Origin: an uncultured virus (IMG/VR IMGVR_UViG_3300034418_005550)
Lineage: Duplodnaviria; Heunggongvirae; Uroviricota; Caudoviricetes
Reading direction: 5' to 3' (one strand)
Length of the DNA: 20,000 nucleotides
IMG/VR virus record: IMGVR_UViG_3300034418_005550
Translations under genes and position numbers: made by a program
Shown: one piece after another, positions 1,808-17,439 of the stretch
How the letters are laid out: the number at the start of each line of letters is the position of its first letter
Numbering within the stretch: position 1 is the first letter of the stretch
Notes under the pieces: model-generated
What the model was told of the DNA's origin: nothing
Databases searched by the model: none
What the model saw: only the letters and a program-made list of their open reading frames with translations

Positions 1808-3290
1808 TATAAGCGTTCTCTCCGAATCTATGTATTTGTTCTAATCTAGCTTTTGCTAATTCTTCAGTAGGATAACAACCTAGAAGTCTATTTGTATCTT
1901 CTGAATAAACACAATACTCGCCATTTTCTTCTCTAATTACTTTTATTTCTAAATCATTTTCAAAACTAGATAATTCAATAACTTCTTGATTTGGTATTTC
2001 TTGTACTGCAGTAAATGTTCCTAATTCATCTTTTGGAACTGCTACTTTATTATTAGGCATTAAATAAACATCATCATTTTCATCTGTATCTAATCCTATT
2101 GCTCTTCTTGCCTCGCCAATAGTCATTATTCCTGCATTAACACCAACTGCTAATCTTCTATACATATCATCTTCATCTTGCTGTAACGCTCTTACATCTG
2201 AAAAGTCATAATAAGCCTCTTGATATTGTTCTGTATGAAAATCTACATTTAATAATTGATGAGTTAATTCTTGTCCTATCATTCTCCATAATGGTATTAA
2301 TTTATTTTCAGTAAAATACTCTCTTAATTGTTTTGCATTAGAATAAGTTGCTCTATCTAATCCTGCACCTAATCCTGCTAATATTGCAGGTACTCCTAAT
2401 ACTGCTGATATTCTTTCTTCTGATATATGTCTTAATTTTCCTATATCTAATTCACTTGGACTAAATGACATTTTTTCTACAGACATAGCACCACTAAGTA
2501 CTAAAGGCATTCCTTTGTTTTGACCTGCTACTTTTTGTTGATAAGTTTTTACAATTTGTTCAGCTTCTTCACTAGTTGGTCCATATCCGTCCTTTGGACT
2601 AATAATTACACTTGGAACACCGCTATTAGCTAATAATGCAGTTGCTAATTGACCTGCTGATTCATCGCCATATATTTCTCTTAATACTGACTTTAAAGGA
2701 CTAAAACCTCTTTTATGATTAGTTGGGTCTAATCCTAATCGTAAATGTATAATATCTTCTTTCATTATGATTGTTAAGCCGTTCTTTTCAGTTTCATATT
2801 CATAATGAGTTATCAAATCTTCTTTAGTACCTTTTGGAGTTACTAAGTTAGGCATTAAAGGATAAAGTGCTACTACTTGTCCTGATTCATTCTTTTGTTT
2901 TAATAAATAGGCATCTCCAAATACATGCATAGCATTTATTATGTATTGTTGTATTACATCTCCTGACATATAAGGATTAGGTCTTTTCATCAATATTTCA
3001 AATGGATGATTATAAATAACTTCCATTTCATTATCTTGGTTATAAGTTTTAACTAATAAAGAGGCTTCAGAAAATGAAACTCCTAAAGTTTGTAAACATG
3101 CAACAACTGCTGAATTAGATTGTCCATTACCAATATTATTAACATCAAATTCTCCTGCACGCGTATTAAAGCCCCATATAAAACTGTTTTGTCCGTATAT
3201 TCCTACATCATCTCTAAAAAAATTATAATATTTTTCTTCTTGATTATTTCTTCCAAATATTATTTCGCTTAATTTTCTTCTCTCTGCCAT
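1794..3290 (-). CDS. Phage portal protein (HK97 family)
   Basis: RPNPYMSG, GDAY, LYPLMP, DIIHLR, GFSPL, GVP..L...ATYSNA, GIMTIGEARR motifs; directly downstream of terL; SD AAGGAG. Confidence 0.95.
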   Translation of the reverse strand: MAERRKLSEIIFGRNNQEEKYYNFFRDDVGIYGQNSFIWGFNTRAGEFDVNNIGNGQSNSAVVACLQTLGVSFSEASLLVKTYNQDNEMEVIYNHPFEILMKRPNPYMSGDVIQQYIINAMHVFGDAYLLKQKNESGQVVALYPLMPNLVTPKGTKEDLITHYEYETEKNGLTIIMKEDIIHLRLGLDPTNHKRGFSPLKSVLREIYGDESAGQLATALLANSGVPSVIISPKDGYGPTSEEAEQIVKTYQQKVAGQNKGMPLVLSGAMSVEKMSFSPSELDIGKLRHISEERISAVLGVPAILAGLGAGLDRATYSNAKQLREYFTENKLIPLWRMIGQELTHQLLNVDFHTEQYQEAYYDFSDVRALQQDEDDMYRRLAVGVNAGIMTIGEARRAIGLDTDENDDVYLMPNNKVAVPKDELGTFTAVQEIPNQEVIELSSFENDLEIKVIREENGEYCVYSEDTNRLLGCYPTEELAKARLEQIHRFGENAYSGEF

Positions 3291-12939: not shown

Positions 12940-13479
12940 TTATTTAACTAATGATAAAAATTCGTTTCTAGTTTCGCTTTCTTCTCTAAATACTCCACGC
13001 ATAACTGAAGTAATCATTTGTCCGTCAGTCTTAATTCCTCTTGCAACCATACATAGATGGGTTCCTATTCCATAAACTGCTACATCATATGTATTTACTA
13101 AATCTCTAACTTCATTTGCAATATCAGAAACTAGTTTTTCTTGTAGTTGTAATTTATGTGCGTGTTTATGTGCTATTCTAGCAAATTTAGATAATCCTAA
13201 AACTTTATCTCTAGTTATATAACCAATTGCTATTTCTGAACTAAACGGCATTAAATGATGTTCACATAAAGACCAAACTTTTATTCCTTTAACTATAACC
13301 ATTTGGTCTGCTTTTACTGCTTCAAAAGTTGTTCCAATTTTTCCTGCGTCATAATCTATAAACTCTTTCCAAAACTTTGCAACTCTTTTTGGTGTTTCTA
13401 ATAATCCATCTCTATTTGGGTCTTCTCCAATTTCAATTAATAATTCTTTTATTAATTTTTCTATTTTTTCTTGTTGCAT
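12940..13479 (-). CDS. folE: GTP cyclohydrolase I
   Basis: GL.ETPKRVA, SLCEHHLMPF, GLSKFAR, QLQE, HLCMVARG. Confidence 0.95.
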   Translation of the reverse strand: MQQEKIEKLIKELLIEIGEDPNRDGLLETPKRVAKFWKEFIDYDAGKIGTTFEAVKADQMVIVKGIKVWSLCEHHLMPFSSEIAIGYITRDKVLGLSKFARIAHKHAHKLQLQEKLVSDIANEVRDLVNTYDVAVYGIGTHLCMVARGIKTDGQMITSVMRGVFREESETRNEFLSLVK

Positions 13480-14213
13480 TATTTACCTCTTTCATCTGAC
13501 CATAACAAGACATGCAATCTTGGAGATAAGTTATATCCTCTTTTTAGTATTTCATCTGATAGTTGCACCATATTTATAAAATGGTATTTATTATTTTTGC
13601 CTTCAGGCATTATATAAACATTTTTTAAATCGTTTTCTTTTACTATTTCATCTACTTCAAATAAGTCATCTATTTCTTGTACTACAAATTTAAAAGCATA
13701 GTTTTGCGAATATTGCATATATTGTTCTAATACTTTTGGTTTAATAGTTTTTTCTTTTGGCATACCTGCATTTGATAATTTAGGACTAATATTAAAGTAA
13801 TCTATAACATCAAAAAACTCATCATTTTTAGCTAATATTGTTCCATTTGTTTCAATTTCAATAACAAATCCTTTTTGTCTTAGATTTTTCATTACATGAA
13901 ATAATTTACTTTGTTGGCTCATTGGTTCGCCACCAGTAAAAACAATATGACTTCCAAAAGGTAAATTAAGGCTCATTATTTGTCCTACTACTTGCTCAAC
14001 TGTAAAGCCAATAGTTTCTTTTTTAGGGTCATACTTAACTCCATTTTTACCTTTCCAGTCCCAAGTGTATGGAGTATCGCACCAATCACAAGTTAAATTG
14101 CAACCACTAACACGAATAAATGCACTAATCTTTCCAATAGTTTGCCCCTCGCCTTGAAATGTAGGTCCAAAAATTTCATTTATTCTAATTAAAGGTAAAG
14201 TTTTAGTATTCAT
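13479..14213 (-). CDS. queE: 7-carboxy-7-deazaguanine synthase (radical SAM)
   Basis: EIFGPTFQGEG, GCNLTCDWCDT, TGGEP, IETNGT, ISPKL, SPRLH. Start ATG 14213, or TTG 14225. Confidence 0.95.
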   Translation of the reverse strand: MNTKTLPLIRINEIFGPTFQGEGQTIGKISAFIRVSGCNLTCDWCDTPYTWDWKGKNGVKYDPKKETIGFTVEQVVGQIMSLNLPFGSHIVFTGGEPMSQQSKLFHVMKNLRQKGFVIEIETNGTILAKNDEFFDVIDYFNISPKLSNAGMPKEKTIKPKVLEQYMQYSQNYAFKFVVQEIDDLFEVDEIVKENDLKNVYIMPEGKNNKYHFINMVQLSDEILKRGYNLSPRLHVLLWSDERGK

Positions 14214-14580
14214 AATAACTTGCAATAGTTTTATCAGTTTCTTTTACACTTACTTTATTTAAAATATCTTTTTCTCCATATATTTCAATAAACATTGCTT
14301 CAAATTCTTTATAAAAATGTTTAGCCATTTTTTCAGCAGTAGGATTAAAGTTTAAAACATCGTTTAAATGCCTATGGTCTAATTTATTATCTATATATTC
14401 TTTAATAAAATTTAATTCTCCATAGTCAATTATGAAACCAACTTCATCTAATCTCATAGATATTAACTCAACAATTACTACATAATTATGTCCATGCAAC
14501 CTAGCACATTGGTGTTCTTTTGGTAAATTAAGTAATTGATGACTTGCAGAAAAAGTAAATTCTTTAGCTATTGAGTACAT
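14203..14580 (-). CDS. queD: 6-carboxy-5,6,7,8-tetrahydropterin synthase
   Basis: FSASHQL, CARLHGHNY, LDHRHLND, PTAE, ET motifs. Confidence 0.95.
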   Translation of the reverse strand: MYSIAKEFTFSASHQLLNLPKEHQCARLHGHNYVVIVELISMRLDEVGFIIDYGELNFIKEYIDNKLDHRHLNDVLNFNPTAEKMAKHFYKEFEAMFIEIYGEKDILNKVSVKETDKTIASYYEY

Positions 14581-14593
14581 TTCTTACAACCTT

Positions 14594-14654
14594 TCAATGT
14601 TTATGGTCAAAAAAGACCTGTGAGCTTTTGTTCTCTCGGTAGGAAAAAGCATTC
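14594..14654 (-). repeat. Dispersed intergenic repeat, copy 4 (inverted), between queC and queD
   Basis: Reverse complement GAATGCTTTTTCCTACCGAGAGAACAAAAGCTCACAGGTCTTTTTTGACCATAAACATTGA aligns with copies 1 and 2. Confidence 0.85.
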
Positions 14655-14668
14655 ATTGGGTAGTAGCC

Positions 14669-15451
14669 CTACTTATTCTCTTGAAATTCTTGTTGTAATT
14701 TAAGAGCGTTTTCTAAGACTTCGTCCCAACCTCCTACATACTCAACTGGGTCTTGTGTTCCTAATTGCCAAAAAGCTAATATTCGTTCAACATCAGAGCC
14801 AGTTTTTCCACTAGCTCTTCCTTTTTCATCAGGTGCATAACTTGTATTAGTATTTTTTAGAACTGTATTAAAGTCTAAATTTAACTTAACGCAGTTTGCG
14901 TCAGTATCTTGCAATATAGTAAATTTATCTCCATTTAAGTAAGGAAGTTTTAAACTTACTAAATCACTATCCCAATTGCCTACTTTAAAAGCATTCATTG
15001 CCTCTACATAAAATTCAGGTCTGCAATCAGGATAAATTGCGTGGTCGCCACTATGAACTCCAAGTCCAATATCTACTTGGCAATTTTCTTTTGTTGCTAT
15101 TGATAATGCATAACCTGCAATCATAGAAAAGAAAATCATATTTCTATTTGGAACTACTGTAAGTTTCATATTTTCTTGCTCATAAAAGCCCTCTGGCACA
15201 TCAGTATCGCTACTAACTAATGCAGAGTTATATAAATTACCTATTTGAGATACATCTAATACTGTATGTTCTACTTCATAGCCATTTTCTTTTAAATAAG
15301 CTAAATTATCAGATAATCTTTCTAATTCAAGTTTATGTTTTTGTCCATAATCAAAACTTAATGCAGAAACTTTATAATCATTTGCTAAAAAATTAATTAA
15401 AAGTCCTGTACTATCCATGCCTCCACTAAGGCTTAATACTGCTCTTTTCAT
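14669..15451 (-). CDS. queC: 7-cyano-7-deazaguanine (preQ0) synthase
   Basis: PP-loop SLSGGMDS, SFDYGQKH, VVPNRN, HSGDHAIYPDCRPEF. The C-terminal Zn cysteines are absent. Confidence 0.92.
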   Translation of the reverse strand: MKRAVLSLSGGMDSTGLLINFLANDYKVSALSFDYGQKHKLELERLSDNLAYLKENGYEVEHTVLDVSQIGNLYNSALVSSDTDVPEGFYEQENMKLTVVPNRNMIFFSMIAGYALSIATKENCQVDIGLGVHSGDHAIYPDCRPEFYVEAMNAFKVGNWDSDLVSLKLPYLNGDKFTILQDTDANCVKLNLDFNTVLKNTNTSYAPDEKGRASGKTGSDVERILAFWQLGTQDPVEYVGGWDEVLENALKLQQEFQENK

Positions 15452-15846
15452 TATTTCTCCAAATATCCTACTGAAGTAGTTTCAATTCCACCTCTTTTAG
15501 ATTGTTTATTAGTTACTTTTATCCATTTAGGCTCTAAAGTATCAAATAATTTTTGTGCAATATCACTTGCTAATGCCTCGCAAAAATGTCCTACTTCTCT
15601 AAATGTCCATAAATATAGCTTTAATGATTTACTTTCAATACATAATTCATCAGGCTGATATTCAATAGTTAATTCTCCAAAGTCAGGTTGTCCTGTCATT
15701 GGACATAAACTTGTCAATTCATCAGTCCAAAATTTTACTGTTTGAGTATTTTTTGGTGCAGGAAAAGTTTCAAGTTGGTCTAATGGATTTCTTGTCTTTT
15801 TTCCTAATATAGTTAGGTCTTTAGTATATTCTGGCTCATGTGCCAT
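15451..15846 (-). CDS. queF: NADPH-dependent preQ0 reductase (unimodular QueF)
   Basis: Catalytic CPMTGQPD, QueF motif ESKSLKLY, RGG; FCE in place of the usual FHE. Confidence 0.9.
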   Translation of the reverse strand: MAHEPEYTKDLTILGKKTRNPLDQLETFPAPKNTQTVKFWTDELTSLCPMTGQPDFGELTIEYQPDELCIESKSLKLYLWTFREVGHFCEALASDIAQKLFDTLEPKWIKVTNKQSKRGGIETTSVGYLEK

Positions 15847-15851
15847 TTTGT

Positions 15852-15886
15852 CCTCCTAGTTTTGTTTAAGGTTTTCTAGTACTTGA
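15852..15886 (-). promoter_or_regulatory. preQ1-I riboswitch-like element overlapping the queF SD
   Basis: UCAAG-UACUAGAAAAC-CUUAA-ACAAAACUAG-GAGG: a short P1, loop CUAG able to pair with tail CUAG, A-rich tail; immediately 5' of queF. Confidence 0.55.
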
Positions 15887-15945: not shown

Positions 15946-15961
15946 CTAAAATAAAAAAAAC

Positions 15962-15989
15962 TTAGAACAAAAAGTAGAAAAAGTATAAT
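15962..15989 (+). promoter_or_regulatory. Putative promoter of the large ncRNA (divergent from the que promoter)
   Basis: TATAAT at 15984-15989; weak -35 TTAGAA; A-tract upstream. Confidence 0.55.
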
Positions 15990-15995
15990 ATAGGT

Positions 15996-16826
15996 TTATT
16001 ATATTTTTTATAAGGTTATGGTTAGCCTTAAAAAATAGCAACCGAGTAGAGCGAGAGCTAACCCAAGTAAAATTGGTAGGTAAGAAATTAGAAATTCAAC
16101 CTTGATGAAGACTTAAACAGAGAGCTTTTGTGAGCATAAACTAGTACCTGAAAATGAAACTTGGGGAGGTAATTAGCCCACTTGTTAAGAAGTAAAGCAA
16201 GAAGTAAGAAGTAAGGTAGGCGTATTGACTACAGGATTGAGAATTTCCATTAAAAAATAATTTAAAGTAGGATTGGTATAAACTTAACTAGCCAAAAATC
16301 TAGAGTATGCTCTCACAAAAGCTCTTTGTAACTGAGTTCTTATGGATATGAGTAGTTGTTTGGCAAGTAGTTCAGGAATGTACCTGCCTTTAGTTGAAAT
16401 ACTTTAGGGCTACGCTATAAAGCATATATTGATTCGAAGCAATATGAACTACTTAAAACTTATAAACCATTTAGTAACCAATCCTGAAATACGGCATGTC
16501 GAAAAATGTTAGATAAGTAATTTAAGTAAGCAAACAGATACGCTCATATCCGTAAGGACTTAGTTAATTTGAGAGATTAAAGATATAGGTTGTGAAGGTA
16601 ACTTCTCATTTGGGAAGCTTCATCTCAGGTGGTCGTAGCGTAATGCACGAGCCATATACTGAAAGGTATATAAGCCTGAAGGAATAACTTGCAGTACAAT
16701 ATCCTTTTAGGTTAGTTGTGGAGTGTGGTGGGTTGTTAATTTAATCAAAGTGGTTTTGACAAATTACTTTGAACTTTAACTGTAAGCAAGATTGTCATTA
16801 TTTAGCCTGTATCTTTAATCTCTTAA
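15996..16826 (+). ncRNA. Large structured ncRNA, family unassigned (GOLLD/ROOL size class); may extend to 16949
   Basis: No ORF of 60 aa or more in the track. Three long closing helices with G-U pairs, multiple GNRA hairpins, inter-domain complementarities, upstream -10 box and downstream terminator. Confidence 0.85.
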
Positions 16827-16862
16827 TTTAGATTTATAACTCCCAATAGGGTAGAATAGATG

Positions 16863-16949
16863 ATATATTCACTGATAACTCCGTGATTATTATCTAACAT
16901 ACGAGAAGACTTTAAGGACTGGCAACAGTCTTTAAGGTCTTCTTTTTTT
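16863..16949 (+). ncRNA. Putative antisense sRNA, or 3' tail of the large ncRNA
   Basis: Possible -10 TAGAAT (16852-16857); hairpin UCAC/GUGA exposing anti-SD AACUCC; UUAUUAUCUAACAUAC complementary to three mRNA leaders; terminator. Confidence 0.55.
16904..16949 (+). terminator. Rho-independent terminator of the ncRNA locus
   Basis: 18-bp stem AGAAGACTTTAAGGACTG-GCAA-CAGTCTTTAAGGTCTTCT (two G-U) followed by a T-run on the plus strand. Confidence 0.9.
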
Positions 16950-17439
16950 ACATTGGTGTAGGTTTTACAATATATCTTTCTTGAGTTTTAGGTAATGGTG
17001 CTAATTTTTTAGTGATTATATTCCAATAAGTAAAAGGTAAGCCAGTTTTTGATATTCCATGCCACCTGTAGCCTAATTTTTCATAAAATTTAATACTTGG
17101 TTTATTTGCAAAAAACCTTAATAACATTACATAATTTTCTTTCATATCTTCTTCTAACATTTTCATCATTTCTGCACCAATATTTTTACCTCTATATTGT
17201 TCTAATACGAAAAAATGTCTTAAAGTACAATGTCTTGGTTCTCTTTTTGTATAAGAAATAAACATAAAACCTTTATCTTCTAAGCTAAAAACTTTAGAAC
17301 TTTCTTTATCCCATTGTTTTTCAACTCGCCAATCATACAAAGCATTTTTTAAATGACTTTTAGAACTTAAACTACCACCTTTTGTATGTTCTATTTCTTT
17401 TAATAATTTTTCCATTTCTTTTTCAGTTTTTATTATCAT
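16948..17439 (-). CDS. GNAT-family acetyltransferase
   Basis: FFVLEQYRGKNIGAEMM (motif A) and ANKPSIKFYEKLGY (motif B). Start moved to ATG 17439. Confidence 0.85.
   Translation of the reverse strand: MIIKTEKEMEKLLKEIEHTKGGSLSSKSHLKNALYDWRVEKQWDKESSKVFSLEDKGFMFISYTKREPRHCTLRHFFVLEQYRGKNIGAEMMKMLEEDMKENYVMLLRFFANKPSIKFYEKLGYRWHGISKTGLPFTYWNIITKKLAPLPKTQERYIVKPTPM

Follow-up and report, generated by a model that had tools for sequence, protein, structure and literature searches.

By sequence comparison, the non-coding region studied here in the window (the whole 20,000-nt stretch of DNA analysed) is an accessory phage array that consists of a leader followed by three stem-closed, uncatalogued structured RNA cassettes, D1, D2 and D3. 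The best explanation we can offer, to which we give about an even chance, is that these are independently exchangeable cassettes, likely transcribed as one precursor from which a host RNase III-type enzyme would cut, ~14 nt into each closing stem, three separate RNAs of likely about 190–230 nt, whose role in trans would be to bind proteins as decoys; two of these products may dock through one optional D1-D2 pairing. The first-pass annotation had instead drawn the region as a single compact RNA held together by a network of long-range pseudoknots. That network as first stated is largely wrong, while the underlying element is real: because related phages swap modules like cassettes, most long-range pairings proposed earlier are coincidental, and a single contact between modules likely holds.

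The window is the terminal part of a 65.9-kb virus record, where the genes include terminase, replication and queuosine-pathway genes, and it is best represented in freshwater metagenomes. The ORF listing of the window has no long ORFs at ~16016–16830, and this RNA region is more stably folded than its shuffles (z = −5.3). G-U pairs fall on the + strand, and the array is probably transcribed as + strand RNA. Promoter-like sites in the region number 6, against 4.8 expected by chance, and the features discussed below are collected in Table 1. Tail, capsid, portal and terminase genes occur twice in succession in the 65.9-kb record, as two related sets, which looks like a junction of two related phage genomes; the array occurs only with the second set. 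Divergent from the array lies a five-gene cluster (window 12940–15846) of GTP cyclohydrolase, QueE-, QueD-, QueC-like and QueF-like genes (QueF-like is our own label for a gene with the PHROG annotation GTP cyclohydrolase), which we presume may serve 7-deazaguanine DNA modification. Adapter-joined contig ends from two metatranscriptomes fall at window positions 15870–15871, just upstream of the QueF-like start and perhaps near the 5′ end of its mRNA.

Table 1 Positions of the array, its cassettes, helices and flanking signals in the window
Feature	Position	Strand	Remarks
Promoter-like site, TAGAAA-16-TATTAT	15975–16002	+	Candidate; 9/12 matches, weak
Structured 5′ leader	16016–16115	+	Resembles the L028 leader; contains the GAUGAAG and ACCU segments
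Cassette D1 (slot B)	16117–16329	+	18-bp closing stem plus inner helix; RNase III consensus 15/16; predicted cuts after 16130 and before 16318
D1 local helices GGG/CCC (16164–66 with 16177–79) and ACUU/AAGU (16180–83 with 16190–93)	16164–16193	+	Cover the UAGCCCAC donor
Candidate D1 pseudoknot	16184–16293	+	Loop GUUAAG (16184–89) with CUUAAC (16283–88), crossing GGC/GCC (16219–21 with 16291–93)
Two D1 sites complementary to the D2 acceptor, CAGGAUUG (16232–39) and AGGAUUGGU (16269–77)	16232–16277	+	Each also in a weak local stem
Cassette D2 (slot D)	16329–16566	+	25-bp closing stem, constant scaffold, two exchangeable arms; RNase III consensus 13/16; predicted cuts after 16344 and before 16553
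Conserved central D2 hairpin, palindromic loop UUCGAA (16433–38)	16426–16445	+	Candidate symmetric kissing loop
Acceptor ACCAAUCCUG, internal loop of the second D2 arm	16477–16486	+	Homologous arm reads AUCACGCCUA in six other arrays
Cassette D3 (slot E)	16569–16826	+	24-bp closing stem; RNase III consensus 12/16, alone not significant
Local helix GUGAAG/CUUCAU	16592–16623	+	Covers the CUUCAUC acceptor; 0 broken in 54 cells; 4/6 pairs change on both sides
CUUGCAGU/ACUGUAAG, probable nested D3 stem	16688–16786	+	Competitor is the local AAUAACUUGC/GUGGGUUGUU (16683–92 with 16728–37)
Intrinsic terminator-like hairpin with U tract	16903–16944	+	Similar hairpin in L007, itself without array

Motif scans yielded 34 distinct arrays, the window's own included. 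We left out L034, L036, L040, L041 and L043 as non-array motif matches, L097–L099, which lack a cassette chain, and L094, in which no cassette was parsed; among the 42 matches of a further scan one was a new array (L129), the remainder being known loci or chance matches. The collection holds 111 cassettes, 80 of them distinct, and across 37 loci (some cut by contig ends) there are 25 cassette orders of one to five cassettes each, with the B-D-E order of the window in 7. Cassettes are gained, lost, duplicated and swapped independently, and relatives exchange both whole cassettes and inner arms. D2-type cassettes (36 of 37 parsed, with L095_D_478-619 left unparsed; crude 9-mer clustering) combine 13 first-arm types and 13 second-arm types in 31 combinations on a constant scaffold, a pattern that recombination at the central hairpin and at the constant stems would account for. 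Comparison of the arrays also shows that the same closing stem can enclose unrelated interiors, that cassette interiors measure 70–480 nt, that in L029 and L035 another closing stem surrounds the D1 core, that one cassette type also occurs singly, and that the conserved part of D3 is its 5′ half, no counterpart of its 3′ half having been found in the other arrays. The array is accessory: a relative whose flanks both match the window, at 83% and 90% identity, is without 15958–16823 (L007), and among 34 relatives anchored by two proteins a D-type array is found in 14, a lone 160-nt cassette in 4 and neither in the rest.

Several related elements were observed in these genomes. The lone 160-nt cassette (L152 2624–2783; also L171, L176 and L195) is flanked by two AAGGAGTT copies, and its interior is related to the slot-B cassette of L078. 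Promoter-like repeats with the near-palindrome AATCT/CnAGATT flank the arrays of L025 (678–760 and 1830–1860) and many relatives, and array-less relatives keep only the downstream copy, which suggests an operator, and insertion or loss between the repeats. L009 has a different array on its minus strand (~1900–3150), with a stem-closed cassette of ~600 nt that gave no Rfam match and has a segment in common with the 427-nt cassette of L091. In a group of more distant phages (L029, L035 and L038) a different closing stem encloses the D1 core, a 315-nt cassette and short hairpins, the last of which are placed ahead of ribosome-binding sites.

Each unit is enclosed by its closing stem, an uninterrupted duplex of about two turns. 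We compared 22 closing stems with the weak E. coli RNase III consensus WNAGWGNNCWUNNN^NAWGNNCWCUNW, as printed in PMC4357697 (background from PMC1540722), and found a mean match of 12.2 of 16; shuffled pairs gave 10.0, and reading from the opposite end gave 9.0. In 19 of the 22 stems the consensus aligns from the base of the stem, and 6 of the 22 score at the null level; the stems are mutually related, so the significance of the fit is overstated. This fit favours release of separate RNAs, and cutting at the predicted sites would leave cores of ~190, ~210 and ~230 nt, with a shorter helix still closing each of them. Six metatranscriptome runs contain part of the array, and contigs from four studies cover it. 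Both the X15 and the X18 library must contain uncut molecules or DNA, since one X15 contig (16205–16804) is unbroken over both cassette junctions and one X18 contig spans the first predicted cut. Contigs can show neither strand nor transcript ends, and it is with this limit that contigs of two studies end at 16804 and 16805, ~10 nt before the predicted D3 cut, and that X15 has no cover at 16822–17222. Contig depth in X15–X17, which cannot rank expression, is lower over the array than over the queuosine genes.

Within the cassettes, local structure covaries. In the D1 family 93% of cells are paired, and 15 pairs have changes on both sides. The six GUUAAG/CUUAAC pairs of the candidate D1 pseudoknot are invariant in 14 of 14 rows, which is conservation without covariation, and the GGC/GCC helix that they cross does covary (CG 7 and GC 7; CG 11 and UA 2). 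A possible D2 pairing, UAGUU/AACUA, does not covary, and 2 of 36 cassettes break it; the variable D2 arms are mostly self-paired. Cassette interiors are enriched in AGUA words (220 versus 165) and GNRA words (754 versus 629), counted over rows that are not independent; we take the former to be loop-E motifs and the latter tetraloop motifs.

All five complementarities listed in the first-pass annotation exist, with every motif where it was placed and pairing as written. The best cross-segment helix (−13.3 kcal/mol) is equalled in 27% of 300 dinucleotide shuffles (four segments), and two helices at −12 kcal/mol or better occur in 20% of 300; helices at −6.9 or better number 26 against a shuffle mean of 15.8 (p 0.013). 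Since strong helices are common in shuffles, homologues were needed to decide, and in none of the 33 other arrays do a listed donor and its acceptor occur together as literal motifs. Cassettes of the same array are complementary to each other at chance level only (126 native pairs, −9.7 versus −9.5 for shuffled), and native pairs are not more complementary than pairs drawn from different arrays (p 0.13, 0.52 and 0.87).

The pairing of AGGAUUGGU (16269–16277, D1) with ACCAAUCCU (16477–16485, D2) held up in part. In its literal form it co-occurs only in the window, and the acceptor position in the homologous D2 arm reads AUCACGCCU in six arrays. A compensated second version is found in two other arrays, where AGGUGUGAG (L037, at about the donor position of D1) or AGGUGUGAU (L091, within an unrelated slot-B cassette) is complementary to AUCACGCCU, each with three double-sided changes relative to the window. 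Across the 80 distinct cassettes and both acceptor types we found 5 independent sites that are strong acceptor partners, all in slot B, versus 0.45 expected; 3 versus 0.17 expected are partners of the acceptor type that the first-pass annotation had not picked, and the other 15 kb contain 0. The compensated pairing means that the cassettes are not wholly independent. Because only 3 of 9 arrays have both halves, a pairing of this type is at most optional, and whether it is a real, optional D1-D2 contact is in our judgement evenly balanced. A longer D1-D2 complementarity than any proposed earlier was also observed, between AAGGUAGGCGUAUU and AAUGUACCUGCCUU (16213–16226 and 16377–16390; 13 of 14 pairs), with 14 of 14 pairs and −19.9 kcal/mol at this site in L060; each strand has local partners too, and linkage or inverted copying could account for the match.

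These data bear on an alternative compatible with the best explanation, namely that the released RNAs form RNA-only complexes, in which D2 homodimers would be joined by a palindromic loop and D1-D2 heterodimers by the AGGAUUGGU-type contact. The central D2 loop reads UUCGAA in 19 of 36 cassettes, UUAUAA in 15 and is longer in 2, so that all 34 short loops, in two versions, are self-complementary hexamers; PMC12286853 argues for symmetric kissing loops in OLE and GOLLD from the same kind of palindrome switch. The confinement of strong acceptor partners to slot-B cassettes also speaks for such complexes. Against them, the switch between palindromes may rest on one mutational event, and a four-base loop closed by a U-A pair accounts for it equally well; of the 9 acceptors and the 9 donors, 6 each lack a cognate in their own array (L063 is mismatched), and a site as strong as the D1-D2 partners fell by chance in coding DNA. 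We consider RNA-only complexes rather unlikely on balance. The intermolecular kissing that the first-pass annotation had proposed for a duplicated D1 donor may instead have its place in the switching palindromes of the D2 loop, and this loop and GUUAAG/CUUAAC in D1, both of which it had missed, are better candidates than the pairings it listed. An extended proposal, which we put forward tentatively and at a similarly low level of belief, is a combinatorial RNA display library, in which RNase III-freed scaffolds with two recombining arms would assemble via the palindromic kissing loop and the co-evolving D1-D2 contact to form multivalent decoys for proteins of host defence or regulation.

It is less probable that the cassettes act in cis or at the DNA level, as RNase III punctuation of an early transcript or as recombination hot spots like PeSL, with the inner structure being minor. 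In most relatives the array does lie between the exonuclease gene and early genes, with related promoter-like repeats on both sides, and PeSL repeats drive modular shuffling in T4-type phages according to PMC2839356. However, the window array has no downstream gene and runs into the terminator-like site, conservation and covariation of the inner cores extend over several lineages and hold within different closing stems, and the interiors far exceed in length what a cut site needs.

A role of the released RNAs as small RNAs that control host mRNAs by base pairing is somewhat less probable again. There is a precedent in DicF of the Qin prophage dicBF operon, a small RNA released from a polycistron by RNase III (PMC10448788), and variable arms could track variable targets, but the variable arms are largely self-paired and a search of the phage's own genome with 111 queries gave no convincing match (best E 0.002). 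We regard that of protein-binding decoys as the most likely role for the RNAs that the array would release, given its accessory status, the shuffling and self-pairing of its arms and the lack of antisense matches to the phage's own genome; no partner protein or target of such decoys was found.

The remaining listed pairings were decided by local structure. The pairing of GAUGAAG (16104–16110) with CUUCAUC (16618–16624) and that of UAGCCCAC (16174–16181, D1) with GUGGGUUG (16728–16735, D3) fail because covarying local helices occupy their strands. In the first, the acceptor is the 3′ strand of the GUGAAG/CUUCAU helix, which is retained with compensatory changes in 9 of 9 homologues. In the second, the donor's CCCAC is taken up by two local helices that all 14 of the distinct homologues keep paired, one base pair reading GC in 10 of them and UA in 4; this donor is found in 10 other arrays, none of which has the GUGGGUUG acceptor, and the acceptor has a local partner inside D3. 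For CUUGCAGU (16688–16695) with ACUGUAAG (16779–16786) the complementarity stands and a pseudoknot is the less likely reading: we lean slightly towards a plain nested stem of D3. Its pair probability is 0.07 when folded freely and 0.2 with the supported helices enforced, its CAG/CUG core is present in 5 of 9 aligned D3 homologues, L009 has CGG/CUG at this core with nested helices flanking, and the hairpin that would put CUUGCAGU in a loop clashes with UCAGG/CCUGA, which has a compensatory change.

We therefore think it very improbable that the three domains stay joined as one compact RNA held by a conserved four-pseudoknot network, like ROOL or GOLLD: all the complementarities are present, the D1-D2 pairing has its compensated version and an uncut contig crosses both junctions, but the listed pairs recur together in 0 of 33 other arrays, two of them need strands held in covarying local helices, native cassettes pair no better than shuffled or cross-array ones, GOLLD and ROOL models find no match, and independent cassette swapping, a lone cassette type and RNase III-like stems all contradict a single RNA.

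Complementarities of 7–9 bases in an 800-nt RNA need homologue tests; of the four tested here, two did not survive, another is probably a plain stem and the last held in part. What had been supposed to be a single ornate RNA becomes a diversifying set of many uncatalogued phage RNA folds, for which the array supplies predicted cut sites and two specific candidate assembly contacts. Should the cassettes be released and target host proteins, then phages deploy libraries of recombining RNAs in their arms race. A literature search, which covered few subscription papers, returned no description of this cassette system or of recombining RNA libraries in phages.

Comparison with known RNAs and phages gave no catalogued counterpart. 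Rfam had no family match in the window region or homologues (two scans of 20 loci each, one with none at E 1), and the covariance models of GOLLD (RF02032; window region and own genome, E 10) and ROOL (RF03087; window region scans) found no match; an extra ROOL search gave no match in control genomes, so the window Rfam scans carry the weight. We therefore place the array in neither GOLLD nor ROOL, nor in any other of the tested Rfam families. ARAGORN found no tRNA or tmRNA in the window or genome and 0 genes in 35 loci. Group I and II introns, hammerheads and a tmRNA tag were dropped as candidates, their core elements being lacking and Rfam giving no match. Cultured phage records returned short chance matches only, a genome collection gave 3 matches, none with a cassette chain, and searches with the terminase and exonuclease gave no host name either.

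The array resembles ROOL and GOLLD, as described in PMC12286853, in being phage-borne, several hundred bases long and structure-rich, with a palindrome-switching loop like their intermolecular bridges. It differs from them in having no model match, no single full-length conserved fold, no nearby tRNA and no conservation of the proposed long-range pairs: apart from the one optional pairing, long-range or intermolecular pairs conserved as in a ROOL/GOLLD-type nanocage were not found across the family. The PeSL of the T4-type phages RB49 and phi1 are, according to PMC2839356, short promoter-plus-terminator elements ahead of genes; like the cassettes they are repeated non-coding elements of early, plastic regions that mark modular exchange. 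Unlike PeSL, the array has no promoter, terminator hairpin and ribosome-binding site in each repeat, its cassettes abut without promoters or genes between them, and they enclose large conserved RNA folds.

rRNA operons and the early RNA of phage T7 are RNase III-processed polycistrons. With these and DicF the array shares long double-stranded stems in one transcript and a fit to the consensus that would free separate RNAs; it differs in that its units are all non-coding, uncatalogued and directly abutting, that units and arms are shuffled between phages, and that its cutting is a prediction. On this analysis, the array is likely processed like an RNase III-punctuated polycistron and shuffled like PeSL regions.
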